Source of the DNA: Steroidobacteraceae bacterium
Lineage (GTDB): Bacteria > Pseudomonadota > Gammaproteobacteria > Steroidobacterales > Steroidobacteraceae
DNA length: 20,353 nt
Assembly (NCBI GenBank): GCA_035276085.1
Contig: DATELY010000001.1
Coordinates: 1-20,353, forward strand
Direction: 5' to 3'
Shown here in pieces: positions 2,774-18,937 of the stretch. Below the pieces are notes generated by a model that saw only the letters and a list, made by a program, of their open reading frames with translations, was not told the DNA's origin and ran no database searches. The first letter of the stretch is position 1. Each line of letters starts with the position of its first letter. A program made the position numbers and the translations under genes.

Positions 2774-4065
2774 CAACCATCAAAGCGAAAGAGCGAGACA
2801 CGGTTATTCAAGCGCTGCGTGCCGGCGTCGTACCGCGCATTGGGCAACACCTGATCCAGGTCGGCCGCGCAAGAGAGATCGAGACACTCCTCCGGGACAT
2901 CGAACGCATCGCCGAGGCCGGTACAGGTTTTCGCCTAGTGATCGGCGAGTACGGCGCGGGGAAGACCTTCTTCCTGAATCTCGTACGTGCTATCGCGATG
3001 GAAAAGCGGCTCGTCACAGCGCACGCCGACCTGAATCCGGACCGACGCTTACAGGCTTCCGGAGGCCAGGCACGCTCACTTTATGCTGAGCTGATGAAGA
3101 ACCTCTCGACGCGCACCAAACCTGACGGCGGAGCACTGTCCGGTGTTGTTGAAAAGTTCGTCGCACAAGCGAAGACGGAAGCTAAGGCTGCATCCCGCAA
3201 TAGTGAAGACGTGATTCGAGAGAAGCTTTCGAGCTTGTCGGAACTCGTCGGTGGCTACGACTTCGCAGAAGTCATCGCCGCATATTGCCGCGGCTTCGAG
3301 GAAGGCAACGACAAGCTCAAGGCAGACGCGGTACGGTGGCTACGCGGCGAATTCACGACAAAGACGGACGCCAGAGCAGCCCTCGGGGTGCGGACGATTG
3401 TCGACGACGATGCGTTTTACGATCAGCTGAAGCTCTTTGCGCGCTTTGTCAGGTTGGCCGGCTTCTCAGGGCTACTGGTCTGTCTGGATGAAATGGTGAA
3501 TCTGTACAAGCTCGCCAATGCTCAGGCGCGCAATGCCAATTACGAGCAAGTACTGCGCATTCTGAACGATTCACTGCAAGGCTCAGCCGATGGTTTGGGC
3601 TTCGTGCTGGGAGGTACGCCGGAGTTCCTGCTCGACACGCGACGTGGTCTGTACAGCTACGCGGCGCTTCAATCTCGACTCTCCGAGAACACTTTTGCCG
3701 CGCAAGCCGGGCTGCAGGATTTCTCAGGCCCAGTCCTTCGACTATCGAGTCTGACGAATGAGGACTTCTTTGTGCTCCTGCAGAAGCTCAGACACGTCTA
3801 CGCGAGTGGCAACGAGTCGAAATATCTGCTCCCGGACGACGGGCTCATCGCCTTTATGCAACACGCTTCGAAACGCCTTGGAGAAGCGTACTTCCGGACC
3901 CCAAGAACAACGATCACGGCGTTCCTGAGTCTGCTTGCCACGCTTGAACAGCACCCGCAGGCGAATTGGCGCGAAATGCTGGGCGCCGTGGTCGTGGAGG
4001 AAGACAAGGAAGGCAATGACGAGGGAGCCACCGAGGATGACGAGCTCGCATCCTTCAAACTCTGA
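2770..4065 (+). CDS. P-loop ATPase, BrxD-like (DUF2791-type) ATP-binding protein
   Basis: 431-aa ORF. Walker A RLVIGEYGAGKTFFLNL and Walker B LLVCLDEMVNL. Size and motif spacing match the BrxD/DUF2791 family as I recall it. Start overlaps the upstream stop, suggesting translational coupling. Confidence 0.65.
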   Translation: MTTIKAKERDTVIQALRAGVVPRIGQHLIQVGRAREIETLLRDIERIAEAGTGFRLVIGEYGAGKTFFLNLVRAIAMEKRLVTAHADLNPDRRLQASGGQARSLYAELMKNLSTRTKPDGGALSGVVEKFVAQAKTEAKAASRNSEDVIREKLSSLSELVGGYDFAEVIAAYCRGFEEGNDKLKADAVRWLRGEFTTKTDARAALGVRTIVDDDAFYDQLKLFARFVRLAGFSGLLVCLDEMVNLYKLANAQARNANYEQVLRILNDSLQGSADGLGFVLGGTPEFLLDTRRGLYSYAALQSRLSENTFAAQAGLQDFSGPVLRLSSLTNEDFFVLLQKLRHVYASGNESKYLLPDDGLIAFMQHASKRLGEAYFRTPRTTITAFLSLLATLEQHPQANWREMLGAVVVEEDKEGNDEGATEDDELASFKL

Positions 4066-6265
4066 TGAATCCGGCTTTTCCCTCCTCCATCCGAGCATTC
4101 AGCGCTGGGTATGGTCAAAGGGGTGGACATCGCTGCGCGACGCTCAGGAGCGAGCGATCCGACCCATTTTGGAAGCCAGGGAAGACATCATCATTGCAGC
4201 GGCGACTGCCGCCGGAAAGACTGAAGCCGCGTTCCTACCCATCCTAACGAACATCGCCAATGCGGGTGAGGAATCAGCGCTCGCAATCTATGTCAGCCCC
4301 CTCAAAGCACTGATCAACGATCAGTGGGGGCGCCTCGAAGAGCTGTGCGAATCCCTCGAGCTGCCGGTTATTCCCTGGCATGGCGACATCCCAGCGAGCA
4401 GAAAGACCCGGTTCCTTAAGTATCCGCGTGGTGTTCTGCTGATCACCCCTGAATCGCTAGAAGCGATGTTTGTAACTCGAGGAAGTGAGACTCCGCGCCT
4501 GTTTGCAGCGTCTCAGCATGTCGTCATCGACGAGCTGCATGCTTTCATCGGCACCGACCGCGGCAAGCAGATGCAGTCTCTCCTCCACCGGATCGATGGT
4601 GCGGCCGCCAAGCGAATACCGAGAGTGGGACTCTCCGCGACGCTCGGAGACATGAAACTCGCCGCCTCATTCCTACGGCCGAACGAAGCTGAGCAGGTGC
4701 GCCTCATCGTTTCGCAAGGCGGCGGGCAGGAGCTTCGGATCCAGGTGCGCGGCTACCTCTGCCCTGCTTTCATCAAGAGCGACGAGAACGCGGAGCATCG
4801 CGACGAGCAAACCCTCGGCTCGGAAAATGCCATCGCGGACCATCTCTACCGGGTGCTTCGCGGCACCAACAATCTCATCTTTCCGAACTCGAGAAAGAAG
4901 GTCGAGTTCTACACCGACGCATTGCGCCAGCGCTGCGAGGCGAACGCAGTGCCCACTGAGTTCTGGCCTCATCACGGAAGTCTCGCACGGGCGATCAGAG
5001 AGGAAACGGAGAAGGCGCTCAAGCAAGGCGACCGGCCCGCAACCGCCATCTGCACGACGACACTGGAGCTGGGCATAGACATTGGGGCCGTACAGAGCGT
5101 CGCGCAGATCGGTCCCGGTCCGTCCGTGGCATCGCTTCGGCAGCGTTTGGGGCGCTCGGGACGACGCCAAGGCGAGCCTGCGATTCTACGTTCCTACAAT
5201 ATCGAGCAGGCGCTGACGGAGAAGTCTTCGCTCTCCGACTGCCTGCGCGAAGCGCTCGTACAGTCGATTGCAATGATTCGATTACTACTGCGAGGCTGGT
5301 TCGAGCCGCCTCACTCGAGCGGCCTGCACCTCTCCACGCTCGTTCAGCAGGTACTGTCCGTCATCGCGGAACGCGGTGGCGCACACGCAAGTCAGCTCTA
5401 TAGGTCGCTAATCAGCGAAGGTGCGTTTCACGGACTCTCATCGGCAGAGTTCGGCGAGTTCCTGAGTAGCCTCGGGAGCAAGGACCTCATCGCTCAGGAC
5501 CGGACGGGTCTGCTGCTCCTCGGAGAGGCCGGGGAACGATTCGTAGGTAGTCATGACTTTTACTCAGCCTTCACGTCCGAGGAAGAATGGCAGATCCTCT
5601 GCCAGGGCCAAACTATGGGCTCGCTGCCCATCAGCTCGCCGATCTTTCCGGGGATGCGATTGATATTCGCAGGACGACGATGGCAGGTTGTTGCCGTCGA
5701 TGAGGAGGCGCTTGTCGTGTCTGTCGCATCAGATCCAGGCGGCTTGCCGCCACTCTTTGGTGGCGGCAAAGCGAGCACGCACGACGTCGTACGACGCGAG
5801 ATGCGCGATGTGCTCGCTGCGAACGAGACGATTGGCTTCCTCGACTCGACCGCCTCCTCGCTGCTCGTCGAGGCTCGCCAGCAGTTTTCCAAGCTCAAGC
5901 TCGACGACACGCGTGTGATCAAGGCCGGCAACCTGACAACCGTGTTCACGTGGCGCGGCGACGCCGCCAACGATGCTCTAGTGCTGCTACTGCGCGGTCT
6001 CGGTATCGACAACGTCGAGAACGAGGGTCTCTATGTTGAAATCGCCAAGTGTGACGATGATCGGCTGCACGATGCCCTGTCGGATATCGCAGAGCTGCGC
6101 GATGTCGACTACATCAGCCTACTGACAGACGTATTCAACATGCGAAGGAGCAAGTGGGATTGGGTTCTCTCTGACTCACATCTCAGGAGATCGTTCGCCT
6201 CCTCGCATCTATCGTTTGAAGGCGCGCGTGCAATCGCACGCGAGTACGCAGATCTAAACCACTGA
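4037..6265 (+). CDS. Superfamily 2 DEAD/DEAH-box helicase, Lhr-like (BrxHI-like), with long C-terminal extension
   Basis: Motif I IIIAAATAAGKTEAAFLPIL, motif II VVIDELHAF (DEAH-type), motif III SATLG, motif VI-like LRQRLGRSGRR. About 350 aa follow the helicase core, as in Lhr-type proteins. The ORF track starts at 3935. I prefer ATG 4037 (GGAG 11 nt upstream; typical Lhr N-terminus FSLLHPSIQRWVWSKGW). ATG 4016 is also possible. Overlaps the upstream gene by 29 nt. Confidence 0.75.
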   Translation: MTSSHPSNSDESGFSLLHPSIQRWVWSKGWTSLRDAQERAIRPILEAREDIIIAAATAAGKTEAAFLPILTNIANAGEESALAIYVSPLKALINDQWGRLEELCESLELPVIPWHGDIPASRKTRFLKYPRGVLLITPESLEAMFVTRGSETPRLFAASQHVVIDELHAFIGTDRGKQMQSLLHRIDGAAAKRIPRVGLSATLGDMKLAASFLRPNEAEQVRLIVSQGGGQELRIQVRGYLCPAFIKSDENAEHRDEQTLGSENAIADHLYRVLRGTNNLIFPNSRKKVEFYTDALRQRCEANAVPTEFWPHHGSLARAIREETEKALKQGDRPATAICTTTLELGIDIGAVQSVAQIGPGPSVASLRQRLGRSGRRQGEPAILRSYNIEQALTEKSSLSDCLREALVQSIAMIRLLLRGWFEPPHSSGLHLSTLVQQVLSVIAERGGAHASQLYRSLISEGAFHGLSSAEFGEFLSSLGSKDLIAQDRTGLLLLGEAGERFVGSHDFYSAFTSEEEWQILCQGQTMGSLPISSPIFPGMRLIFAGRRWQVVAVDEEALVVSVASDPGGLPPLFGGGKASTHDVVRREMRDVLAANETIGFLDSTASSLLVEARQQFSKLKLDDTRVIKAGNLTTVFTWRGDAANDALVLLLRGLGIDNVENEGLYVEIAKCDDDRLHDALSDIAELRDVDYISLLTDVFNMRRSKWDWVLSDSHLRRSFASSHLSFEGARAIAREYADLNH

Positions 6266-6327
6266 TCAAGGAACACCACGCAGATGCCGAAGATGGACCT
6301 CGTCAAGAAGATTAGGGAATTCAAGGC

Positions 6328-9300
6328 ATGCTAGCAGCCCATCAATCGTTGCGACTAAGCGCCTCGGATCTCGTCGGCCATCTCAACTGCCGGCATCTGA
6401 CGGCCCTCGAGCTCGAGGCGACCAATGGAACGATCGAGCGCCCAACTTTCCGCGATCCATTGCTGGAAATCCTGTGGGAACGCGGCGCACTCCACGAACG
6501 CCAGTACGTGGACTATCTTGCGAAGGAAGGCTACGCGGTCATCCACATCGAGGGCGTTGGGATTACTCAGGAAGCTGTGCAGCAAACGCAGGCCGCGATG
6601 AAAGCAGGCACTGAGGTCATAGTACAGGCCGCGCTGTCTGGTGGACGCTGGGGCGGCCGGCCCGACATCCTCAGACGCGCCGCGGCACCAAGCGCGCTTG
6701 GGAATTGGTCGTACGAAGTCCTAGACACGAAGCTTGCGCGCGAGACTAGAGGCGGCACAGTCCTGCAACTCTGCCTCTATGCGGATCTTCTTGCCACCGC
6801 TCAGGGACTGTCGCCGGAGTACATGTATGTCGTGAAACCCGGTGCAACCTTTGAGCTGCAGCGCTTCCGGACAGCCAGCTACGAAGCGTACTACCGATAC
6901 GTCAAACGTAGTCTTGAACGTTCGCTTGAGGCCGGTGACGCGACATATCCGAACCCGAAGGAGCACTGCGAGATCTGCCGCTGGCGCATGCAGTGCAACC
7001 TCAAGCAACGGCACGATGACCACCTGTGCCTTGTCGCAGGAATCACGAAAATACAGATTGGTGAGCTCCAGCGCTACGGAATTCACACTGCCGCCGCGCT
7101 CGCACGGATGCCCGTCCCATTACAGTGGAAGCCTGAGCGAGGAGTACCTCAGTCCTACGAGCGATCGCGTGAGCAGGCGCGCGTCCAAGTCGCAGCTCGT
7201 ACGTCGGGGCACCCAATCTACGAGACCATCCCACCGGAGCCCGGGATCGGACTGGCTCGACTGCCGGAACCATCGCCTGGCGACATCTTCTTCGATCTCG
7301 AGGGCGATCCATTCGTGGGTGAGGGTGGCCTTGAATTCCTTTTCGGCTACCTATTCCTCAGCGAGAATGGCGAGCAGTCCCATGTCGGAGAGTGGGCCTT
7401 CAATCGCAATGACGAACAACGCGCCTTCGAGCGCTTTGTTGATTTCACAATGGCGCGCTGGTCGCGGCATCCCGCGATGCACGTCTACCACTATGCATCT
7501 TACGAACCAGGCGCACTGAAGCGCCTGATGGGACGTTACGCCACGCGAGAGGACGAAGTAGACCGCATGCTTCGTGGCGGCCTGTTTGTCGATCTCTACA
7601 CGATCGTGCGGCAAGGCATTCGCGCCAGTGTCGAGAGCTATTCGATCAAGAATCTGGAAGTTTTCTGTGGCTTCACTCGTAAGGTGCCACTCGCCGACGT
7701 GCGCCCTGCCCTCGCGACCGTGCAGGCCGCATTGGAGCTTGCAGACTTAGCACAGGTCAGCGAGCAGGATCGGGAGATCGTCGAAGCGTACAACCGAGAT
7801 GATTGCGCTTCTGCCCAGGCGCTGCGCAATTGGCTGGAGGCTGTTCGGGCAAAGCTGATCACGGAAAGGGCAACGATCGCGCGCCCCGCGGCCGAGTCTT
7901 CCGAGCCCACACAGGAAATCGGCGAGCGCCAGCAACAGATCGAAGCACTGGTCGCCAGACTGACGCAGGGTGTCCCAGCAGAAATCGAAGGTCGCACTGC
8001 CGAGCAGCAAGGCCGATGGATCCTGGCCTACACGCTGGATTGGCACCGGCGCGAGCTCAAGTCGGTCTGGTGGGAATACTTTCGGCTCTCCGACCTGACC
8101 GTAGATGACCTTCTCGACGAGCGTTCCGCACTCGCGGGACTAGAGTTCATCCAGGAGATTGGCGGCACGAAGAAGGCCCCGATTCATCGCTATCGCTTCC
8201 CGGCTCAAGACACCGATCTGAGACCAGGGGACACACTCTGCATGGTGGGTGGTGAAAATCTCGGTCGGATCGAAGCTGTCTCGTATGAGGATCGAACGAT
8301 CGACATCAAGAAGCGAATGGACACCGCATCCGTGCATCCGCAGGCGGTCTTCGAGCATGACCTCGTCGGCACCAATGAGCAGGCCGATGCGCTGATGCGG
8401 CTCGGCATGCATGTGGCGGAACATCGGATAGAAGGGGATGGTCCGTATCAAGCAGCGCGCGATCTGCTGCTGCGTCGGTCACCGGTTGTTTCCCCCGTAC
8501 GCCATGCTGGCGAGACAACGCTGGCTGCGGCGACTCGTCTGGCTCCGATGCTTTCCTCCGGCGTATTGCCCATCCAGGGGCCGCCGGGTGCGGGCAAAAC
8601 GTACACCGCCGCACGCATGATTTGCGAGCTGGTTCGAGCTCGAAAGAAAGTCGGAATCACCGCCAACAGTCACAAGGTCATTCGCAACCTACTAAATGAG
8701 GTCGTGAAAGCAGCTGATGATCTAAATGTCGATATCTCTTGCGTTCAGAAGCCCGGGGAGCCCGAAGAGGATGTTCATCGCATCCGGTTCGCCAGAAAGA
8801 ACGAGGATGTCTTCGCCGCACTCGCTGGGAATTGCGATGTTGCCGGCGGAACCTCGTGGCTCTGGGCGCGCAAAGAGGCATTTGAGTCGGTCGATGTTCT
8901 GTTCGTGGATGAAGCAGCGCAGATGTCTCTCGCGAACGTGCTTGCAGTGGCGCACGCATGCAAGACGCTCATTCTCGTGGGCGACCCACAGCAACTGGAG
9001 CAACCTACGAAGGGCAGCCACCCTGAAGGTACGGACGTATCGGCGCTGCATCATATGCTTGGCGGCAAACCAACCATTGAAGCCGAACAAGGTCTGTTCC
9101 TCGAGGAAACCTGGCGGCTACATCCTGCTATCTGCAAATTCACTTCCGAACTTTTCTACGAGGACAAACTTCGACCCCGTCCTGGCCTCGAGCGCCAAAC
9201 GATCCGTTCGACGCGAGCGAATGGATCAGGACTGCGTTTCTTTGCTGTGGCACACGAAGGCAACCAGAACTCAGCGCCCGAGGAAGCCGATCAGATTCGC

Positions 9301-9705
9301 GCAATTGTTGACGACATCCTCGGCACAAGGAGCACTTGGGTCGACGCGAAAGGCAAGGAGCTGCCGCTTGAGCCCACAGATCTCCTCATCATCGCACCCT
9401 ACAATGCGCAGGTCTTCGAACTTCAGGAGCGCCTACCTGCCTTTCGCGTTGGTACCGCCGACAAGTTCCAGGGCCAGGAAGCACCGATCGTGATCTATTC
9501 GATGACCACTTCCACTCACGCTGACGCCCCACGAGGGATGGAGTTTTTGTACAGCTTAAACCGATTGAACGTTGCAACGTCGCGAGCGAAGTGCCTATGT
9601 ATTCTCGTAGGGTCGCCGGCGCTGTTTGAACCCGAATGCAAGACGCCTGGGCAAATGGAATTAGCGAATGCGTTCTGCCGATATCTGGAGATGGCTACAA
9701 GCTAG
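6328..9705 (+). CDS. Nuclease-helicase fusion: Cas4/RecB-family PD-(D/E)xK nuclease with Fe-S cysteines + DnaQ/RNase-H-like domain + SF1B (Upf1/DNA2-like) helicase
   Basis: N-terminal nuclease motifs: GRPDIL (motif II), YEVLDTKLA (E-x-D-x-K motif III), QLCLYADLL (QhxxY). Cys ligands: one Cys in LNCRHLTALE plus CEICRWRMQC (C-x2-C-x5-C), the Cas4/AddB 4Fe-4S pattern. Mid-region DIFFDLEGDPF and YHYASYEPG resemble DnaQ-like exonuclease I/II motifs. C-terminal helicase: Walker A IQGPPGAGKTYTAA, Walker B VLFVDEAAQM, LILVGDPQQL, motif VI VATSRAKCLCILVG. Confidence 0.8.
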   Translation: MLAAHQSLRLSASDLVGHLNCRHLTALELEATNGTIERPTFRDPLLEILWERGALHERQYVDYLAKEGYAVIHIEGVGITQEAVQQTQAAMKAGTEVIVQAALSGGRWGGRPDILRRAAAPSALGNWSYEVLDTKLARETRGGTVLQLCLYADLLATAQGLSPEYMYVVKPGATFELQRFRTASYEAYYRYVKRSLERSLEAGDATYPNPKEHCEICRWRMQCNLKQRHDDHLCLVAGITKIQIGELQRYGIHTAAALARMPVPLQWKPERGVPQSYERSREQARVQVAARTSGHPIYETIPPEPGIGLARLPEPSPGDIFFDLEGDPFVGEGGLEFLFGYLFLSENGEQSHVGEWAFNRNDEQRAFERFVDFTMARWSRHPAMHVYHYASYEPGALKRLMGRYATREDEVDRMLRGGLFVDLYTIVRQGIRASVESYSIKNLEVFCGFTRKVPLADVRPALATVQAALELADLAQVSEQDREIVEAYNRDDCASAQALRNWLEAVRAKLITERATIARPAAESSEPTQEIGERQQQIEALVARLTQGVPAEIEGRTAEQQGRWILAYTLDWHRRELKSVWWEYFRLSDLTVDDLLDERSALAGLEFIQEIGGTKKAPIHRYRFPAQDTDLRPGDTLCMVGGENLGRIEAVSYEDRTIDIKKRMDTASVHPQAVFEHDLVGTNEQADALMRLGMHVAEHRIEGDGPYQAARDLLLRRSPVVSPVRHAGETTLAAATRLAPMLSSGVLPIQGPPGAGKTYTAARMICELVRARKKVGITANSHKVIRNLLNEVVKAADDLNVDISCVQKPGEPEEDVHRIRFARKNEDVFAALAGNCDVAGGTSWLWARKEAFESVDVLFVDEAAQMSLANVLAVAHACKTLILVGDPQQLEQPTKGSHPEGTDVSALHHMLGGKPTIEAEQGLFLEETWRLHPAICKFTSELFYEDKLRPRPGLERQTIRSTRANGSGLRFFAVAHEGNQNSAPEEADQIRAIVDDILGTRSTWVDAKGKELPLEPTDLLIIAPYNAQVFELQERLPAFRVGTADKFQGQEAPIVIYSMTTSTHADAPRGMEFLYSLNRLNVATSRAKCLCILVGSPALFEPECKTPGQMELANAFCRYLEMATS

Positions 9706-10908: not shown

Positions 10909-10948
10909 ATGTGTGATTTCGTTCGTTAAACCACATAAGGAGAATGTC

Positions 10949-12166
10949 ATGAGCCTCGAGGAAATGACGAAGATCGACAACCTGAAGTCATGGATCTCGG
11001 GTGTCGACATCGATTGGGACACGGTGAAGCAGCTGCGCAACATCGCGGAGCTGCCGATCCTCGCAGGTCACGTGGCCGTGATGCCGGACGTGCATCTCGG
11101 CAAGGGCGCAACTGTGGGATCGGTGATTCCGACCAAGGGCGCGATCATTCCGGCTGCGGTCGGCGTGGACATCGGCTGCGGTATGGCGGCCGTGCGCACG
11201 GAGATCTCCGCGAATCAGTTGCCGGACTCGCTGCGTCGACTGCGCTTGCGCATCGAAGAGCGTGTGCCGGTCGGATTCAACTCGCACGATCGACCGCTCA
11301 ATCCTCTGCACGATGGCTTGCGCGGGGTTGCACTGTCGAATGCCGGCAAGAAGATGGCGGAGCGGTACAACACGCTCAAGATCATGGACGTCATCGGCAA
11401 GCACGACCACAAGCGCACGTACAACCAGCTGGGAACGCTGGGCGGCGGCAACCACTTCATCGAGCTGTGTGTCGATGAGTCGAACGGCGTGTGGGTAATG
11501 CTTCACTCCGGCTCGCGCAACATCGGCAAGACGATCGGGGAGACGGCGATCCACATGGCGCGCCAGATTGCGGAACGCGAGGAGCGCGGGCTGCGTGACC
11601 GCGACCTTGCGTGGCTTGACGAAGGTTCGGCCGAGTTCGACATGTACGTCGAAGGCCTGCGCTGGGCGCAAGACTATGCGGCTCACAACCGCGCTTTGAT
11701 GATGCACGAGGTGCTGGTCGCGCTTCGTGAGGAGTTCGGGCGCGAGATCGCGATGTTCGAGAACGCAGTCCAGTGTCACCACAACTATGCATCGGTCGAA
11801 GAGCACTTCGGCCAACAGGTGTGGGTAACCCGCAAGGGCGCGGTATCGGCGCGTCGCGACGAGCTCGGCATCATCCCTGGCTCAATGGGTGCCAAGTCGT
11901 TCATCGTGCGCGGTAAGGGCAATGCAGATTCGTATTGCTCCTGCTCGCATGGCGCCGGTCGTCGCCTCTCTCGCGGCGCTGCGAAGCGGACTTACACGCT
12001 CGCGGATCTGAAGAGGCAGACGGAAGGCGTCGAGTGCCGCAAGGACGAAGGCGTGCTCGATGAGATCCCGGGCGCCTACAAGGACATCGATATGGTCATG
12101 GCTGCGCAGGCCGACCTCGTCGACGTCGTACATACCTTGAAGCAAGTGATGTGCATCAAGGGTTGA
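10949..12166 (+). CDS. rtcB: RtcB-family 3'-phosphate/5'-hydroxyl RNA ligase
   Basis: RBS AAGGAGA 5 nt before ATG 10949. The ORF track's 10913 start lacks an RBS. Hallmark RtcB motifs: LGTLGGGNHFIEL, AVQCHHNYA (GMP-histidine region), CSCSHGAGRR, and the metal-binding-type HLGKGATVGS. Confidence 0.9.
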   Translation: MSLEEMTKIDNLKSWISGVDIDWDTVKQLRNIAELPILAGHVAVMPDVHLGKGATVGSVIPTKGAIIPAAVGVDIGCGMAAVRTEISANQLPDSLRRLRLRIEERVPVGFNSHDRPLNPLHDGLRGVALSNAGKKMAERYNTLKIMDVIGKHDHKRTYNQLGTLGGGNHFIELCVDESNGVWVMLHSGSRNIGKTIGETAIHMARQIAEREERGLRDRDLAWLDEGSAEFDMYVEGLRWAQDYAAHNRALMMHEVLVALREEFGREIAMFENAVQCHHNYASVEEHFGQQVWVTRKGAVSARRDELGIIPGSMGAKSFIVRGKGNADSYCSCSHGAGRRLSRGAAKRTYTLADLKRQTEGVECRKDEGVLDEIPGAYKDIDMVMAAQADLVDVVHTLKQVMCIKG

Positions 12167-12212
12167 TGTCTCTTCGAGGGTTGGGTGTACGGATGCACCC
12201 GACTCTCACTCT

Positions 12213-12365
12213 GCACCGGTAGCTCAATTGGTATGGTCGAGACCATTTCCGTTGGTCGGAGTTGCGGTTTCGCCGCTCCTGCGCGTCCATGCGCCCGCGG
12301 CATTCGCACATCCGTGTGCAGCACAAAACCGCCTGTTGGGGGTTCGAGTCCCTCCCGGTGTGCCA
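12213..12365 (+). tRNA. Aberrant 153-nt tRNA-like locus: 5' acceptor + D-arm start (GCACCGG TA GCTCAATTGGTA...) and 3' T-arm/acceptor/CCA (GGGGG-TTCGAGT-CCCTC CCGGTGT G CCA) separated by about 85 nt of extra hairpin-rich sequence; isotype undetermined
   Basis: Acceptor halves pair (GCACCGG/CCGGTGT with G1-U72). T-loop TTCGAGT and CCA are canonical. No standard anticodon arm was found by eye. A possible anticodon stem GCGGT...ACCGC flanks a roughly 55-nt insert. Confidence 0.4.
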
Positions 12366-12379
12366 CTTTTTCAAATGAT

Positions 12380-12464
12380 CCGTTCCTGGCGGAACTGGTA
12401 GACGCGCTGGGCTCAGAACTCAGTGTCTTCGGACATCCCGGTTCGACTCCGGGGGAACGGACCA
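12380..12464 (+). tRNA. tRNA-Leu (anticodon CAG), class II, CCA encoded
   Basis: Acceptor CCGTTCC/GGAACGG. D-arm TGGCGGAACTGGTAGACGCG as in E. coli Leu. Anticodon stem CTGGG/CTCAG with loop CTCAGAA. Variable arm GTGTC-TTCG-GACAT. T-arm CCCGG-TTCGACT-CCGGG. Confidence 0.8.
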
Positions 12465-12482
12465 CAACATCGTCTGATCTAC

Positions 12483-12694
12483 GCGGGCGTAGCGGAAAAG
12501 GTAAACGCGACCCTAAAACGTGAAGAGGGAAAGCCGAAGAGGCTACGCGGGTAATCAGCCGAGGCACGTGGTTGCGGATGCACCGAATGGCTACGCGAGT
12601 GGTCGCCAGGGAAGCGCGTTTCCAAGCCGACGCTGTCTTCGAGTAATGATCGGAGTTCCGCGATGTGCAGGTTCGAATCCTGTCGCCCGCACCA
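12483..12694 (+). tRNA. Aberrant 212-nt tRNA-like locus: 5' GCGGGCG TA GCGG... and 3' GCAGG-TTCGAAT-CCTGT CGCCCGC A CCA with perfectly complementary acceptor strands separated by about 135 nt; insert contains GGCTACGCG(G/A)G repeated three times
   Basis: Canonical T-arm, discriminator and CCA at the 3' end. A perfectly complementary 7-nt acceptor partner lies 200 nt upstream. Too short for a group I intron. Could be an interrupted or intron-containing tRNA, or a pseudogene plus fragment. Confidence 0.3.
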
Positions 12695-12710
12695 ATACTT
12701 CTTGAGCCGT

Positions 12711-12798
12711 GCGCTCCTGGTTGGAACTGGAAGACACGCCGCGCTTAAAACGCGGTGCTCATTCGAGCGTGCCGGTTCGAATCCGGCGGAGCGCACCA
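12711..12798 (+). tRNA. tRNA-Leu (anticodon TAA), class II, CCA encoded
   Basis: Acceptor GCGCTCC/GGAGCGC. Anticodon stem CCGCG/CGCGG with loop CTTAAAA. Variable arm GCTC-ATTC-GAGC. T-arm GCCGG-TTCGAAT-CCGGC. Confidence 0.85.
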
Positions 12799-13445: not shown

Positions 13446-13688
13446 ATGACTTCGATCAAAGAGATGGTGGCGAACGGCCGCAAAGTTCGATTCACGCACT
13501 ACAAGTCCGGTGAGCTCTGGTACGAGACGGAGTGCGGATTCGCATTCCCTGTACCGACCGCGGATGCAGGCGACGGATGTTTCCTAGCTGAAGACAAGGC
13601 GCTGCTGTTCATGCGCTACATCAGGAAGCACAAAGAGGTGCTCGATCACGCGCGTGCTGACGCTGAGTCCGCCGACCAACAGCCATAG
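13446..13688 (+). CDS. Hypothetical small protein (80 aa) embedded in the tRNA array
   Basis: Strong RBS AAGAGGAGA 6 nt before ATG 13446. ORF sits in an otherwise tRNA-only interval. No recognisable motif. Followed by a hairpin-rich repeat. Confidence 0.5.
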   Translation: MTSIKEMVANGRKVRFTHYKSGELWYETECGFAFPVPTADAGDGCFLAEDKALLFMRYIRKHKEVLDHARADAESADQQP

Positions 13689-14551: not shown

Positions 14552-14639
14552 GCACTCGTGGCCGAGCGGCTGAAGGCGCCGGACTGCAATTCCGGTGAGC
14601 ACATGCTCCACGTCAGTTCGAATCTGACCGAGTGCTCCA
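14552..14639 (+). tRNA. Class II (long variable arm) tRNA with Cys anticodon GCA and U73 discriminator; Ser-like D-arm (TGGCCGAGCGGCTGAAGGC)
   Basis: Perfect acceptor GCACTCG/CGAGTGC. 3-bp D-stem GCC/GGC with a Ser-type D-loop. Anticodon stem CCGGA/TCCGG with loop CTGCAAT. 16-nt variable arm TGAGCACATGCTCCAC (GAGCA/TGCTC stem). T-arm GTCAG-TTCGAAT-CTGAC. T73, CCA. Confidence 0.65.
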
Positions 14640-15105: not shown

Positions 15106-15678
15106 ATGAGTCCGCATATTCTCGCGCTCGACGTCGCCGGCGCTCCGCACCGGTGGATCAACGTTCGTACCGCTGCACACTACTACGCGACCGACATGAT
15201 CGCGTGGGCTGCCGGCGCGAGCGAGTTCACGCTGCGTGGTGGCACTCAGCGCTCGACGGGTTTGCAGTCACTCATTCGTGCGAGTTCGATCGTCGCCATC
15301 AAGGGCAAGGACTTCATCGTCCGCCACTTCGATCAGGTGCCGACGCTCACGAAGGAGATGCTGCTCGCTCGCGATCGATATCTGTGTTCGTACTGCGCGC
15401 AGCGGTTTCGCTTCGAGCAGCTCGACATGGAGCACATCGTGCCGCGCTCAAAGGGCGGCGAGGATTCCTGGATGAACCTCGTCGCCGCGTGCAAGGCGTG
15501 CAACAACCGTAAGGCCAACCGCACGCCGGAGGCTGCCGGCATGAAGCTGCACTACGTACCGTATGTACCGAACCGGTACGAGGCCTTCATCTTGAGCAAC
15601 CGCAAGATCCTGGCGGACCAGATGGAGTTTCTGCTCCAGGGTGTGCCGAAGGGCTCTCGAATGCACTTGAACGCCTAG
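15106..15678 (+). CDS. HNH endonuclease (190 aa)
   Basis: RBS AAAGGAGGAG 6 nt before ATG 15106. Classic HNH/zinc-finger motif CSYCAQRF...MEHIVPRSKGGEDSWMNLVAACKACNNRK (C-x2-C...H...N...C-x2-C-N). Confidence 0.85.
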   Translation: MSPHILALDVAGAPHRWINVRTAAHYYATDMIAWAAGASEFTLRGGTQRSTGLQSLIRASSIVAIKGKDFIVRHFDQVPTLTKEMLLARDRYLCSYCAQRFRFEQLDMEHIVPRSKGGEDSWMNLVAACKACNNRKANRTPEAAGMKLHYVPYVPNRYEAFILSNRKILADQMEFLLQGVPKGSRMHLNA

Positions 15679-15710: not shown

Positions 15711-15759
15711 GCCGTACACCACTTACAACCAAACTGACACAATGAGACAGGAGGGCCCA

Positions 15760-17097
15760 ATGGAAGAGAAAACATTCTTGAGCAAGCTGGGCTCTCGCCT
15801 CTTCGCTCATCCCGGCTTTGAGAATCTCGTGGCGCTTTCAACCAGCGCCAACGGCTTCAGGCGGGAGGATGCCGTACGCCGACTTGGGATGCTGGGCGAC
15901 CCACGAGCGATCCCTTGCCTGATTGTTCGCGCCAACGATTGGGTTCCTCAGGTTCGGACGGCTGCATTCGATGCATTGATCCGAATGCTCAAGTCTGGAA
16001 ACGGCGATGCGTTCGTTACTTCACTGCCGCAGATCCTTCACCTGCAGAGCTGCAGCCGCGGCGATCACACCGAGCTGCTAGCGGCGATTCGTGAGTTTCT
16101 GCTGCGTGAGCAGAACCGAAGCGCTCTTCTCGCCGGAATGGAGAATCGAGACAGCCGTGTAGCAAGGCTCGTTACTCGCTTAGTGGTCGATCACCAGTTG
16201 ATGGCGCCTGCCGAGCTTGTGACGAAGGGTCTGGCACACAGCGATGTGCTTGTCCGGTCCATCATCGTGGATCTTTTGCAGCGGCTGACTCAGGACGAGT
16301 TCGAGACGTTGGCTGACAGGGTTCTCGGAGACACCTACATGCCAGTACGTCGCGAAGCGTTCCAACAGCTTCTGCGGCGGATGCCGGGACGGGGTACGGT
16401 AGCCGCACGGAATCTTTTGTTCGACCGATCCGCGTCGATCCGAGAGATAGCTGTTCAACACCTCCTTGCTCAGGGCGAGTCTGTCGATGAGATCTATGCC
16501 AGTGCGCTGGCAAGGAACGGCGGTCACGCAGCAACAGTCAGATGCGTGCTGTGGGGTTGGGCGCTGATGAACAATCAGGCTCGCGCTGTGCAGGTTGAGC
16601 AATTTCTCGTTTCACCTGTTCCGGCGATCCGTCGCGCTGCCCTGTCCTCAATTGGACGGCTTCTGCGCACAGCGGCAGGCCCGCATCTCGAGAAGGGTCT
16701 CGGAGATGCGTCCCCTGCTGTATGCAACGAAGCAGCTAGATTGATCAGCAGAATCGGTGTTTCCCCCGGCATCGAAACTCTCATGGCGATTGCTACTTCG
16801 AGTGGCCTTGCTCATGTTGCCTACGCTTGCTGTCGCGTAGCCCGCGACGGCAACAAGTGGAACTGGCTGAGGTTCATCCTGGGCGTGTATGGCCGCTCCG
16901 CGTGCGAGATCTCATCGGAAGTTTTCTCAAGAGAGATCGACGCGTGGGAGTGGCAGTTCAACCGCAGCTACGCACAACCGGATCCGCATCAGTTGGCGGA
17001 AGTCGTGCAGTTGTTTGCAGCCTCCCGAGATCGGCTCTCGACGGGGCGCGTTCAACTACTGGCGTTCACGCTCCGAACTTACGGTGGTGCCGTATGA
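15760..17097 (+). CDS. HEAT-repeat (PBS-lyase-type) protein, about 445 aa
   Basis: RBS AGGAGGG 6 nt before ATG 15760. The track's 15742 start lies 18 nt upstream in frame. Repeated DxxVRxxAxxALGxLGDPRAIPxL-type units (EDAVRRLGMLGDPRAIPCLIVRANDWVPQVRTAAFDALIRML; AIRRAALSSIGRLL) typical of HEAT/PBS-lyase repeats. Confidence 0.65.
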   Translation: MEEKTFLSKLGSRLFAHPGFENLVALSTSANGFRREDAVRRLGMLGDPRAIPCLIVRANDWVPQVRTAAFDALIRMLKSGNGDAFVTSLPQILHLQSCSRGDHTELLAAIREFLLREQNRSALLAGMENRDSRVARLVTRLVVDHQLMAPAELVTKGLAHSDVLVRSIIVDLLQRLTQDEFETLADRVLGDTYMPVRREAFQQLLRRMPGRGTVAARNLLFDRSASIREIAVQHLLAQGESVDEIYASALARNGGHAATVRCVLWGWALMNNQARAVQVEQFLVSPVPAIRRAALSSIGRLLRTAAGPHLEKGLGDASPAVCNEAARLISRIGVSPGIETLMAIATSSGLAHVAYACCRVARDGNKWNWLRFILGVYGRSACEISSEVFSREIDAWEWQFNRSYAQPDPHQLAEVVQLFAASRDRLSTGRVQLLAFTLRTYGGAV

Positions 17098-17321: not shown

Positions 17322-17394
17322 TGCAATGTAGCTCAGTGGGTAGAGCAAGCAGCTCATAACTGCTCGGTCGAGGGTTCGACTCCCTCTATTGCGA
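17322..17394 (+). tRNA. tRNA-Met-like (anticodon CAT) without encoded CCA and with a weak acceptor stem (two G·U pairs including 1-72); possibly a host or degenerate copy
   Basis: Good D-arm TAGCTCAGTGGGTAGAGCA. Anticodon stem AGCAG/CTGCT with loop CTCATAA. T-arm GAGGG-TTCGACT-CCCTC. Acceptor TGCAATG/TATTGCG is imperfect. It is the only tRNA here not followed by CCA. Confidence 0.5.
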
Positions 17395-17427
17395 CGACTT
17401 TGCCAAGTCGTACTGGTAAGGCCTCAC

Positions 17428-17491: not shown

Positions 17492-17791
17492 ATCCGAGGC
17501 GCCTCAGCGATCCCTGATCTCGCTCTCGCAAGTGGGCGGGCTCACATCGCAGCGCGTACCACGCTCTGCGCATCGATGCTCTGCGTGCACCCGATCCAGC
17601 GAAGAACACAGTCGAAGAAGCGTGCGTGCCAGGGAGGCGCGCACGATGACGGCCGTATACGCGCCGGTGAGGACACGACGACCGCGATGCCCGTGCGGTA
17701 GGTGCGGGGCGGCTTCGGACCTTTTTGGACGCCGCCGCTGGATGGGCCAGCGGCGGCATTTGGGCGAGTGAAAGAAGTAAGGAGGACGAAA

Positions 17792-18937
17792 ATGACGATG
17801 AAGCGCATCACTGTCGCCCAGCATGAGCGTGCACTGGTTTGGAAGAACAAGACCTTTGCAGGTGTGCTGGAGCCGGGCAAGCACTGGCTCATCGCGCCGA
17901 TGAGCGACGTACAGGCGCAACTCTATGACCTCACGGTTCCGGAGTTCGAACACGCGCGCGTGGACTTCCTGGTGAAGGACGCGCGGGCAACGATGGAGAA
18001 GTACTTCGACATCGTGGAGCTTACCGACAGCGAAGCAGGTCTTGTCTACAAGAACGGCAAGCTGGCGGGTGTGCTCGCACCGGGCAAGCGTCAGCTCTAC
18101 TGGAAGGGCCCGATCGAAGTGAAGGTCGAGAAGATCGATCTCGCGACGGATCTGGAAGTTGCGGCGCCGATTGCCAAGCTGCTCGCACGCGCGAAGCAGC
18201 CGCTGTTGGCGCAGGCTACCGATGCCGTCAGCTCGGTCGAGGTGCCTGACACCTCCGTCGCCTTGCTGATCGTGGACGGCAAGTTCGTGAAGCTCCTCGA
18301 GCCGGGCCTGCATGTATTCTGGAAGTTCCAGCGCACGGTGAAGGTCGAACTCGTGGATCGCCGCGTGCAGACCATGGAAGTCTCGGGTCAGGACATCCTG
18401 ACCAAGGACAAGGTCAGCCTGCGCGTCAACCTGACTGCCTTGTGGCAGGTGGAAGACGTCGTGCAGGCACGTACCTCGCTGCAGAACTTCGTGGAGTCCA
18501 TCTACAAGGAACTGCAGTTCGCACTGCGCGAGGCGATCGGCAGCCGTACGCTCGATGAGCTGCTGGGTGCCAAGGGCGATCTGGATCGCGAGATCCAGGC
18601 GTCGGCACGCGGCAAGATCGAGCAACACGGCATCAAGCTCGCGAGCGTGGGTATCAAGGACGTGATCCTGCCAGGTGAGATGAAGGAGATCCTTAACCGC
18701 GTCGTGGAAGCCGAGAAGGTCGCGCAGGCGAACCTGATCAAGCGTCGTGAAGAGACCGCGGCAACGCGTTCGCTTCTGAACACGGCCCGCCTCATGGACG
18801 AGAACCCGACGCTGCTGCGTCTGAAGGAGCTGGAGACGCTGGAAAAGGTCACGGAGAAGGTCGACAAGTTGACCGTCTTCGGCGGCCTCGACGGCGTGCT
18901 GAAGGACGTCGTGCGCATTCAGGTGCCTGCGAACTGA
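17792..18937 (+). CDS. SPFH/band-7 (stomatin/prohibitin-like) domain protein, no predicted TM, three N-terminal short repeats
   Basis: RBS AAGGAGG 6 nt before ATG 17792. SPFH core DILTKDKVSLRVNLTALWQVEDVVQARTSL...ELLGAKGDLDREIQ...HGIKLASVGIKDVILPGEMKEILNRVVEAEKVAQANLIKRREETAA. N-terminal repeats FAGVLEPGKHWLIAP / LAGVLAPGKRQLYWKGP / FVKLLEPGLHVFWKFQ. The antisense 510-aa ORF is a shadow. Confidence 0.8.
   Translation: MTMKRITVAQHERALVWKNKTFAGVLEPGKHWLIAPMSDVQAQLYDLTVPEFEHARVDFLVKDARATMEKYFDIVELTDSEAGLVYKNGKLAGVLAPGKRQLYWKGPIEVKVEKIDLATDLEVAAPIAKLLARAKQPLLAQATDAVSSVEVPDTSVALLIVDGKFVKLLEPGLHVFWKFQRTVKVELVDRRVQTMEVSGQDILTKDKVSLRVNLTALWQVEDVVQARTSLQNFVESIYKELQFALREAIGSRTLDELLGAKGDLDREIQASARGKIEQHGIKLASVGIKDVILPGEMKEILNRVVEAEKVAQANLIKRREETAATRSLLNTARLMDENPTLLRLKELETLEKVTEKVDKLTVFGGLDGVLKDVVRIQVPAN

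Follow-up and report, generated by a model that had tools for sequence, protein, structure and literature searches.

An apparently undescribed family of tRNA-shaped RNAs and a probable disrupted tRNA-Trp gene in an RtcB-linked tRNA array

Two tRNA-like loci downstream of rtcB

The 20,353-nucleotide (nt) stretch of DNA considered here, hereafter the window, is the forward strand of contig DATELY010000001.1 (positions 1 to 20,353; assembly GCA_035276085.1) from a Steroidobacteraceae bacterium, and it carries 26 tRNA genes, all on one strand, as called by ARAGORN. The gene rtcB (10949..12166, + strand) encodes an RNA 3'-phosphate/5'-OH ligase (Pfam PF01139, E=5e-127; PHROG tRNA splicing ligase); its start is likely near 10949 (homologs have 405 aa), and the longest open reading frame (ORF) begins at 10913. 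Two tRNA-like loci follow on the same strand: locus 1 (12213..12365), which starts 46 nt downstream of the end of rtcB (12166), and locus 2 (12483..12694). A first-pass annotation had noted that both enclose a long internal sequence between tRNA-like ends (acceptor stem, T arm and CCA), and this holds at exactly these positions. Such a resemblance is more than chance, since locus 1 aligns with an intact tRNA-Trp of a related array and locus 2 scores 62.7 bits on a covariance model of distant copies (see below). Both loci are skipped by standard tRNA finders and neither is listed at the gathering threshold of Rfam RF00005, the best partial match in locus 2 reaching 14.3 bits against a threshold of 29.

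We consider it probable that the two loci differ in kind and that neither is a tRNA awaiting splicing: locus 2 would encode a conserved tRNA-shaped non-coding RNA, and locus 1 would be a disrupted tRNA-Trp(CCA) gene. The RNA family to which locus 2 belongs is well supported and apparently undescribed; no family in Rfam 15 matches the locus 2 RNA. Related loci are referred to below by L numbers, L001 being that of a Steroidobacteraceae metagenome-assembled genome whose RtcB is 94% identical to that of the window.

Architecture of locus 2

Locus 2 is 212 nt long and begins and ends as a tRNA does. Its acceptor stem consists of seven Watson-Crick pairs between GCGGGCG (12483-12489) and CGCCCGC (12684-12690), and the D arm (12492..12508; GCG-GAAAAGGUAAA-CGC) has both G18 and G19, its stem covarying across the family (helix 2). 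Purine 26 follows the D arm (G12509 in the window, A in the ortholog L087). At the 3' end, the T arm (GCAGG-TTCGAAT-CCTGT), the 3' acceptor strand, A73 and the encoded CCA fill 12667..12694 and belong to covarying helices 1 and 9.

Between these ends the molecule departs from tRNA. In the place of the anticodon arm, CCCU and AGGG (12511..12529; helix 3) close an 11-nt loop, AAAACGUGAAG, which has neither U33 nor an anticodon. Further downstream, helix P5 (helix 4), supported by covariation, pairs its 5' strand (12560..12569) with a 3' strand at 12630..12641 and so encloses a core of three parts: motif 1 (12570..12587; GGUUGCGGAUGCACCGAA, family consensus UUGCRGARGCACCGAA); the hairpin P-b (12588..12607), with a 6-bp stem, a GCGA loop, family-conserved G.U pairs and covariation of its own (helix 8); and motif 2 (12608..12623; AGGGAAGCGCGUUUCC, family consensus (N)GUAGGGAAGCGCRUUU). 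One strand of a predicted pseudoknot of 7 bp lies inside motif 2 (CGCGUUU, 12615-12621) and the other in the A-rich loop of the anticodon-like arm (AAACGUG, 12516-12522). Folded into the family structure, locus 2 reaches -75.0 kcal/mol, as compared with a minimum free energy (MFE) of -78.3 kcal/mol. A tRNA frame within a tRNA array, pairing between the A-rich loop and CGUUU, and motifs enclosed by P5 (12560-12641), the three features by which members of the family are recognized, are all present in the window copy.

The first-pass annotation had seen in locus 2 an insert interrupting a tRNA. Approximately 130 nt are indeed additional, and most of them lie at the position of the variable arm rather than in the anticodon loop. 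Locus 2 thereby resembles class II tRNAs (Leu, Ser, Tyr), which also carry a helix between the anticodon and T arms and share with it a 3-bp D stem and a long D loop; it differs from them in that this region comprises several helices and invariant motifs over a length of 75 to more than 130 nt and in that an 8-12-nt AAAACGG-like loop without U33 stands where the anticodon would be. Judged from the sequence, the GAA that faces xGUA beside P-b looks like a bulged-G (loop E) motif. Separately, mimicry of 5S rRNA, prompted by AGUAGGGAA and CCGA (a loop-E-like combination), was rejected: local alignment to the E. coli 5S rRNA sequence was no better than with shuffles.

An RNA family in phage and bacterial tRNA arrays

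The core of locus 2 recurs well beyond the window. The 18-mer GGTTGCGGATGCACCGAA within motif 1 is invariant in four bacterial copies and has exact matches in 17 IMG/VR viral contigs, of which 14 were placed inside a tRNA-like frame by a framing script (the copy in L106 is cut by the locus end). A gapped motif search gave 120 raw hits, mostly due to chance, and a tRNA-frame filter reduced these to about 30 distinct members. They reside for the most part in phage tRNA arrays, which have up to 29 genes, and also in related bacterial arrays, and the phages concerned have very different G+C contents and hosts. By BLAST, 17 cultured Streptomyces phages, including Alone3 and Kela, carry the element; in 16 of these no annotated feature overlaps it, and in the remaining one, LuckySocke, a coding sequence for a hypothetical protein does. 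When long-type and AT-rich members were used as BLAST queries against cultured phages, only Streptomyces phages were recovered.

All members have the same frame, i.e., a 7-bp acceptor stem, a D arm with G18/G19, a T arm, a discriminator and, where the host encodes it, CCA. The anticodon-like arm has a 4-5-bp stem and an A-rich loop of 8-12 nt with the consensus AAAAACGGAG and no U33, and it is followed in fixed order by P5, motif 1, P-b, motif 2, the P5 return strand and the T arm. 'Short' forms of approximately 150 nt (Streptomyces-type) consist of these basic parts only, whereas 'long' forms of approximately 200-240 nt, the window copy included, have extra helices before and after P5. The domain at the variable arm spans approximately 75 nt or more, with about 30 near-invariant bases. 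A small GGAGAAAUCC hairpin with a GAAA tetraloop is an optional addition, found 3' of P5 in L105 and L109 and 5' of the core in L165 and L212. L100 has, beside a full member, a second and weaker match to the family model (2160-2340, - strand; 46.7 bits) that is possibly a paralog.

Statistical support for the family was obtained with covariance model R1, built from 10 short phage copies with the window sequence excluded. Members score 46-174 bits on this model and the window copy 62.7 bits (E about 4e-12), whereas ordinary tRNAs reach at most 41 bits. Covariation across homologs, which the first-pass annotation had proposed as a check, is strong for this family: in the model-derived alignment 92.5% of cells are paired (68% in shuffles), 32 of the 39 pairs show compensatory change, and the covariation score is 0.52, as compared with 0.16 for shuffles and at most 0.12 for slid partners. 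All six pairs of P5 and four of the five pairs of P-b have changed in a compensatory manner, and the stem of the anticodon-like arm takes forms as different as GCCCG/CGGGC, CUGGU/ACCAG and GUAGC/GCUAU. A model-free test, in which each 5' strand was offered its own or other members' 3' strands as partners (2000 permutations), agrees with this picture. No permutation reached the observed value for the acceptor stem, the T stem, the anticodon-like stem or P-b (0/2000 each), while 26/2000 did so for P5 and 6/2000 for the pseudoknot of the A-rich loop with CGUUU. The pseudoknot also has compensatory variants, namely UAAACG:CGUUUA (L122, L158), AAAUGC:GCAUUU (L130) and a G-C to A-U exchange (L147).

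Two smaller hairpins considered for the core, UGC/GCA in motif 1 and GGAA/UUCC in motif 2, were supported neither by variants such as those in Kela, L147 and L212 nor by covariation; the CGUUU of motif 2 pairs with the A-rich loop instead. Identity with transfer-messenger RNA (tmRNA) was likewise rejected. As in tmRNA, an acceptor/T-arm module is set on a pseudoknotted body, often phage-encoded. The new family, however, has a canonical D arm, lacks G3:U70 as a rule and has no conserved tag frame. Between the window and L087, a 1-nt indel disrupts a short frame that ends in TAA TGA, and neither ARAGORN nor Rfam gave a tmRNA match.

Orthologs and decayed relatives of locus 2

With a 26-mer of the neighboring tRNA-Leu(cag) as query, two metagenomic arrays, L087 and L088, were found. 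L087 holds a 213-nt ortholog of locus 2 (2941-3153) that is about 90% identical over its full length, while the flanking spacers cannot be aligned. Approximately 12 differences fall within the supposed insert (our count from the alignment), all of them in hairpin loops or compensated, and an extra A in the P5 helix of L087 pairs with a U that is bulged in the window copy. Likewise, P-b differs among the window, L087 and L088 in its loop only.

In L088 an IS605-family TnpB element (947-2560, - strand) has taken the place of the spacer and of the first 30 nt of the locus 2 homolog. Homology breaks off within approximately 3 nt of where the A-rich loop begins, and the ORF of TnpB extends approximately 40 nt into the RNA. 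An origin of the locus 2 domain as a remnant of IS605 or of a miniature inverted-repeat transposable element was considered and rejected: in L088 the element abuts the 5' side of the RNA, but the entire 128-nt region runs on unbroken downstream of it and is also conserved in phages that lack the insertion sequence, so that the IS605 copy is a secondary insertion. Two other relatives are truncated. In L082 (9219-9346) a fusion joins the initial 73 nt of the internal domain, via the beginning of the T arm, to a tRNA-Asp 3' half, and in L089 (6170-6225) only the two ends of locus 2 remain, GCGGGCGTAGC...TCCTGTCGCCCGCACCA.

Locus 1, a tRNA-Trp with two insertions

Locus 1 is the ortholog of an ordinary tRNA gene. 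In L001 an uninterrupted tRNA-Trp(cca) (7353-7428) comes first after rtcB, and the tRNA-Leu(cag) gene next to it is shared with the window. Aligned with it, locus 1 has four intact tRNA stems, an intact variable loop and T arm (GGGGG-TTCGAGT-CCCTC), G73 and CCA; its acceptor stem pairs GCACCGG (12213-12219) with CCGGTGT (12355-12361), with one G.U pair. Outside the inserts the two genes differ at six positions, all unpaired, and the 3' 33 nt are identical. The single insert of approximately 85 nt described in the first-pass annotation thus resolves into two: a 25-nt hairpin, GACCA-UUUCCGU-UGGUC, in the 3' part of the D loop (insert 1, 12234..12258), and a 52-nt stretch that separates C34 from C35 in the Trp anticodon (UUC|...|CAAA; insert 2, 12272..12323) and in a constrained fold forms two hairpins atop an anticodon stem lengthened to 7 bp. 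With the cloverleaf enforced, locus 1 folds at -56.8 kcal/mol (MFE -60.7 kcal/mol) and the inserts form separate hairpins. On model R1 locus 1 scores 28 bits, which is in the range of ordinary tRNAs.

As written, locus 1 cannot decode. Insert 1 is absent at the Trp slot of L001 and L087, and neither insert has a second copy in the window or in the related loci compared. The slot itself is decaying in several ways, since L087 has a degenerate, uninserted copy and L088 none at all. All three insert hairpins carry UCCGU or UCCAU in their loops (12246-12252, 12284-12290 and 12307-12313), and three TCCRT motifs within the 77 nt of inserts are more than shuffling would provide (P about 6e-4).

A long hairpin with the loop ACGGAUG (12176..12209, + strand), read from the sequence, follows the rtcB stop codon directly, its 3' end lying 3 nt short of locus 1. 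Hairpins with an ACGGA(U/C)G loop occur 3' of rtcB also in L001 (7319-7352), L087 (2706-2737), L088 (2664-2695, - strand), L089 (approximately 6105-6135) and L219 (approximately 4915-5030), with stems that differ in sequence but stay complementary, and in these loci the hairpin adjoins the first downstream tRNA. With no T-run in its sequence, it seems not to be an intrinsic terminator. The hairpin of the window and motif 1 of locus 2 have the 10-mer CGGAUGCACC in common. CAUCCGU (12307-12313) in insert 2 is the exact complement of the ACGGAUG loop 100 nt upstream, and a loop-loop contact between an insert UCCGU loop and this hairpin is possible.

The reading that competes best with ours takes both loci for decaying pseudogenes or fused fragments, functionless debris of a fast-evolving array, and as an account of the pair we rate it a little below an even chance. 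Related arrays gain and lose tRNAs quickly, pseudogenes are known from long arrays (PMC8421152), locus 1 exists in a single instance, the Trp slot being degenerate in L087 and empty in L088, and in L082, L089 and L088 the relatives of locus 2 have suffered truncation, fusion or an IS605 insertion. For locus 2, debris is excluded by conservation across diverse phages, by the compensated major helices and by the 62.7-bit match to a model of distant copies; fused pseudogene fragments, one of the options of the first-pass annotation, describe the decayed relatives in L082 and L089 and are the wrong description of the window copies. For locus 1 the pseudogene reading is the leading one, although its inserts are confined to loops, its stems are intact and its UCCRU motifs are non-random. 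Locus 1 is most likely a young, recently disrupted tRNA-Trp pseudogene or a non-decoding tRNA-like derivative, and small insertions into a tRNA gene, another of the earlier options, describe this locus and not locus 2, a conserved structured RNA. Locus 1 could also be a second, lineage-specific tRNA-scaffolded regulator, its three UCCRU loops being complementary to ACGGAUG.

The array and its RtcB cassette

The proximity of rtcB has its counterpart in the organization of the whole region. Downstream of the two loci, the array is accompanied by an HNH endonuclease gene (15106-15678; Pfam/PHROG scan of the window ORFs), a gene for a HEAT-repeat protein (15742-17097; Pfam scan), a tRNA-Met(cat)-like gene called by ARAGORN (17322-17395, + strand) and, just 3' of the latter, a gene for a Band-7/SPFH protein (17702-18937; Pfam Band_7). 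The order RtcB-HNH-HEAT-tRNA-Band-7 is repeated in relatives (L082, L085, L087 and L089 among them) with 0 to approximately 17 tRNAs inserted, and this recurrence of one gene order with differing numbers of tRNAs indicates that the array is the variable filling of a conserved cassette. Among nine further RtcB homologs that were looked up, five loci have no tRNA at all. Neither promoter-like sites within the array nor terminator-like sites above the frequency in shuffles were found, which fits co-transcription of the array.

Both halves of this arrangement have precedents. HNH and RtcB genes are known companions of long tRNA arrays (Santamaria-Gomez et al., 2021; PMC8421152), and an RtcB/Band-7 system with a 'b7a-tRNA' was proposed by Burroughs and Aravind (2016), as cited in bioRxiv 10.1101/312249. 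In the window, genes for HNH and RtcB accompany a long array, a tRNA-like gene lies 5' of a Band-7 gene, and this tRNA-Met-like gene (17322-17395) is probably the b7a-tRNA of such a system. That gene is 92% conserved in five relatives (L082:10369-10442, L087:6264-6338, L090:7711-7784, L001:9619-9692 and L089:7135-7206) and has no encoded CCA; its anticodon loop drifts: most copies have CAU, L001 has CAG, and the loop of L089 is shortened. Like locus 2, the b7a-tRNA is a tRNA-like gene of an RtcB/Band-7 cassette and is proposed to aid RNA repair without decoding, but it is an ordinary-looking 74-nt tRNA encoded by a separate gene, in contrast to the 212 nt of locus 2 with their large structured domain. 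The odd tRNAs and pseudogenes of the long arrays treated in PMC8421152 share the setting of both loci, a mobile array with HNH and RtcB genes, and locus 1 fits among them; the passages of that paper on such arrays describe no conserved non-tRNA family inside them. As part of our best explanation, we hold it likely that RtcB adjoins the two loci because a horizontally mobile long array was built into an RtcB/HNH/HEAT/b7a-tRNA/Band-7 repair cassette, and not because either RNA needs ligation.

Several other features of the window deserve description. Upstream of the array, four large co-oriented genes (470-9705) encode a TerB_N/TerB/TerB_C protein (767 aa), a BrxC/D-like ATPase (431 aa), a DEAD/Lhr-like helicase (776 aa) and a protein with PD-(D/E)XK, RNase H-like and SF1 helicase domains (1125 aa), a cluster that looks like a defense-island module. 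Within the array, an 80-aa ORF (13446-13688) that matches PHROG 20427 (function not assigned; E=5e-31) is the sole protein-coding candidate in a 518-nt gap between tRNA-Asn and tRNA-Val. The tRNA-Leu(CAG) gene between the two loci (12380-12464) begins with C1 (acceptor CCGTTCC/GGAACGG), which is unusual for a bacterial tRNA, as do its counterparts in L001, L087 and L088; over its first 26 nt the window, L087 and L088 agree fully. The tRNA-Cys(GCA) gene (14552-14639; 88 nt) has a class II body with a 3-bp D stem, a long variable arm and U73, a form unusual for tRNA-Cys, and its D loop, GAGCGGCUGAA, resembles that of tRNA-Ser, a specificity absent from the array.

What the family may do

Locus 2 retains those tRNA parts on which processing enzymes act (acceptor stem, D arm, T arm, discriminator and CCA), and RNase P and RNase Z would accordingly release the RNA from the transcript of the array, as they would its neighbors. 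Its decoding end is replaced by a short stem with a conserved A-rich loop and no anticodon, and its variable arm is expanded into a domain in which P5 encloses two near-invariant motifs flanking a covarying hairpin. By pairing with CGUUU of motif 2, the A-rich loop would tie the two lower limbs into one compact body. Our best guess is that this lower body binds a conserved partner in the machinery of translation or of tRNA damage and repair, in which case the RNA may act as a decoy for, or a modulator of, tRNA-directed enzymes. Alternatively, the body may be a self-contained aptamer or ribozyme. Tentatively, and aware that we may well be wrong, we suggest that the core of approximately 75 nt is an active module (an aptamer or a new ribozyme) that is held in a tRNA scaffold, matures as a tRNA and intervenes in translation or in tRNA damage and repair. 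No firmer is the suggestion that phages and mobile bacterial arrays would deliver this module; the family would then be no relic but a tRNA mimic of a new functional class.

Gene neighborhoods offer one specific lead. Of the Streptomyces-type contigs, three have a gene for Ro, recognized by its TROVE domain, that starts 44 nt (L091), 45 nt (L103) or 324 nt (L093) downstream of the RNA, and in phage Alone3 it lies 2.9 kb away and closes the array. These loci invite the explanation that locus 2 and its family represent a new class of Ro-associated Y-like RNA, i.e., a tRNA mimic of the YrlA kind that serves Ro (Rsr), or in the window the analogous RtcB/Band-7 module, as a tether or gate. The RtcB/b7a-tRNA/Band-7 system, present in the window, has been proposed as an analogue of Ro/YrlA (bioRxiv 10.1101/312249), and Chen et al. 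(2014; PMC4201824) expected further Y RNAs to be discovered. YrlA (RF02553; PMC4201824) and the new family are moreover alike as non-decoding tRNA mimics with a D arm, a T arm and an elbow, both being found among tRNAs, beside Ro in some phages and in the context of RtcB-type repair operons. Sub-threshold matches to YrlA (E down to 3e-7) occur close to the RNA in L091 (2203-2322 and 1759-1824, - strand) and L103 (424-493), that is, in Streptomyces-type phage arrays that have both the new RNA and a Ro gene.

The two RNAs are nonetheless built differently. YrlA is circularly permuted, with the T arm before the D arm, a closed acceptor stem and a long Ro-binding end stem, whereas the new family keeps the normal order of a tRNA, has an open acceptor stem with a discriminator and CCA and no long terminal stem, and bears a variable-arm domain with motifs of its own; the YrlA model RF02553 does not match the element. 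A general partnership with Ro failed the reverse test, as the RNA was found in the 3-kb flanks of 1/44 phage Ro loci, this one being the query contig itself. Most loci with the RNA have no Ro gene in their flanks, and there is none in the window. A Y-like identity is therefore unlikely in our view, though not the least likely of the alternatives. RtcB was not found in the examined flanks of the phage members, and Streptomyces is not among the ten organism names that occur most often with RtcB in phage records. The sole constant in the context of the family is residence in a tRNA array.

Ribozyme and splicing readings

The smallest natural group I introns measure roughly 200 nt. The inserts of the two loci (25, 52 and approximately 130 nt) fall below this size, which is one reason why we regard it as improbable that they are reduced group I introns or a new small ribozyme whose products, ending in 2',3'-cyclic phosphate and 5'-OH, are handled by RtcB. 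The combination of about 30 near-invariant bases with a pseudoknot in the core of locus 2 is typical of ribozymes and aptamers, and the ligase encoded next to it belongs to an enzyme family that joins such ends. Against this, Rfam gave no match to a group I intron or ribozyme over 12100-12760 even at E up to 10, and searches of the window and of phage examples, at the gathering threshold as well as at E up to 10, returned tRNAs and noise only. Furthermore, the family leaves nothing to join, its tRNA-like helices being already complete around the domain, and the examined flanks of its phage members lack RtcB.

Splicing by proteins was the first explanation offered in the first-pass annotation, which had also surmised that specificities missing from the array (Ser, Tyr, Trp and Cys) might reside in the two loci. 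This surmise holds for Trp, by the ancestry that the L001 slot reveals; Ser, Tyr and Trp are absent from the array, whereas Cys is present (14552-14639). Removal of both inserts from locus 1 would restore a canonical tRNA-Trp with the loop UUCCAAA. Excising the 'intron' of locus 2 gives no sound tRNA. Intron-mode ARAGORN (-i) reads locus 2 as tRNA-Tyr(ata) with a 128-nt intron, drawing GUA of the P5 3' strand into the anticodon loop, and its L087 ortholog as tRNA-Asp(gtc) with a 119-nt intron; we rejected both calls as artifacts because orthologs that are about 90% identical receive different identities. Mismatches in the D and anticodon stems would have to be accepted in the Tyr model, an exchange of G for A within its proposed anticodon stem in L087 is uncompensated, and the intact tRNA-Tyr of L087 is unrelated in sequence to locus 2. 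The bulge-helix-bulge (BHB) scan that had been recommended gave motifs at chance level: strict and relaxed exhaustive scans of both loci found 0-8 motifs, as compared with 0.6-6.4 in shuffles, and none at the insert boundaries. No EndA-like splicing endonuclease was detected among the 11 window ORFs scanned against Pfam and PHROGs. Both loci share with intron-containing tRNAs the intact ends around a long internal sequence, and insert 2 of locus 1 does lie in an anticodon loop, but they differ in having no BHB, no group I core and no endonuclease gene in sight, and the helices of locus 2 are complete without excision.

That the two loci are intron-containing pre-tRNAs for Trp and Tyr, from which an endonuclease excises the introns before RtcB joins the halves in the archaeal manner, is therefore very improbable, even with RtcB encoded 46 nt upstream, Trp and Tyr missing from an otherwise broad array, a canonical tRNA-Trp obtainable by precise removal of the locus 1 inserts and a Tyr call for locus 2, given that, besides the BHB, endonuclease and Tyr-model results above, in the family the stem beside the D arm is a local, covarying helix and its conserved loop is no anticodon, the domain sits in the variable region, RtcB is missing from the examined flanks of many phage members, and related arrays keep RtcB yet have no interrupted tRNA.

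Points that weigh against our reading

Our reading, a conserved tRNA-shaped RNA at locus 2 and a disrupted tRNA-Trp at locus 1, has to face several points that weigh against it. Both motifs served as search anchors, so their invariance is in part a matter of sample selection. Covariation was counted in an alignment that had itself been fitted to the model, and the small proposed helices UGC/GCA and CC/GG are invariant and show no covariation. The link to Ro is lineage-limited, as the reverse test above makes plain, and no conserved protein neighbor was found across the phage loci beyond this lineage-limited Ro and assorted HNH genes. What is said of the function of the family is drawn from its shape and context only. 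As for locus 1, it is known from a single instance, and its intact stems and non-random loop motifs mean that a function is possible. Finally, a full-text search found no description of such an RNA or of its motifs in a partial body of literature, to which Burroughs and Aravind (2016) does not belong.

Implications

Splicing of bacterial tRNAs by RtcB is unsupported at this locus, which should save effort that might be spent on it. What takes its place is concrete and testable, namely a family of structured RNAs that have a pseudoknot, about 30 near-invariant bases and a fold backed by covariation. A caution for annotation also follows, since tRNA finders run in intron mode mislabel members of the family as intron-containing tRNAs of arbitrary identity. 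Cultured hosts and phages (Alone3, Kela and Comrade) make experiments on the family feasible now. Arrays of tRNA genes are usually explained by compensation for codon usage or by escape from anticodon nucleases; a conserved array member that does not decode suggests that such arrays also carry RNA effectors.

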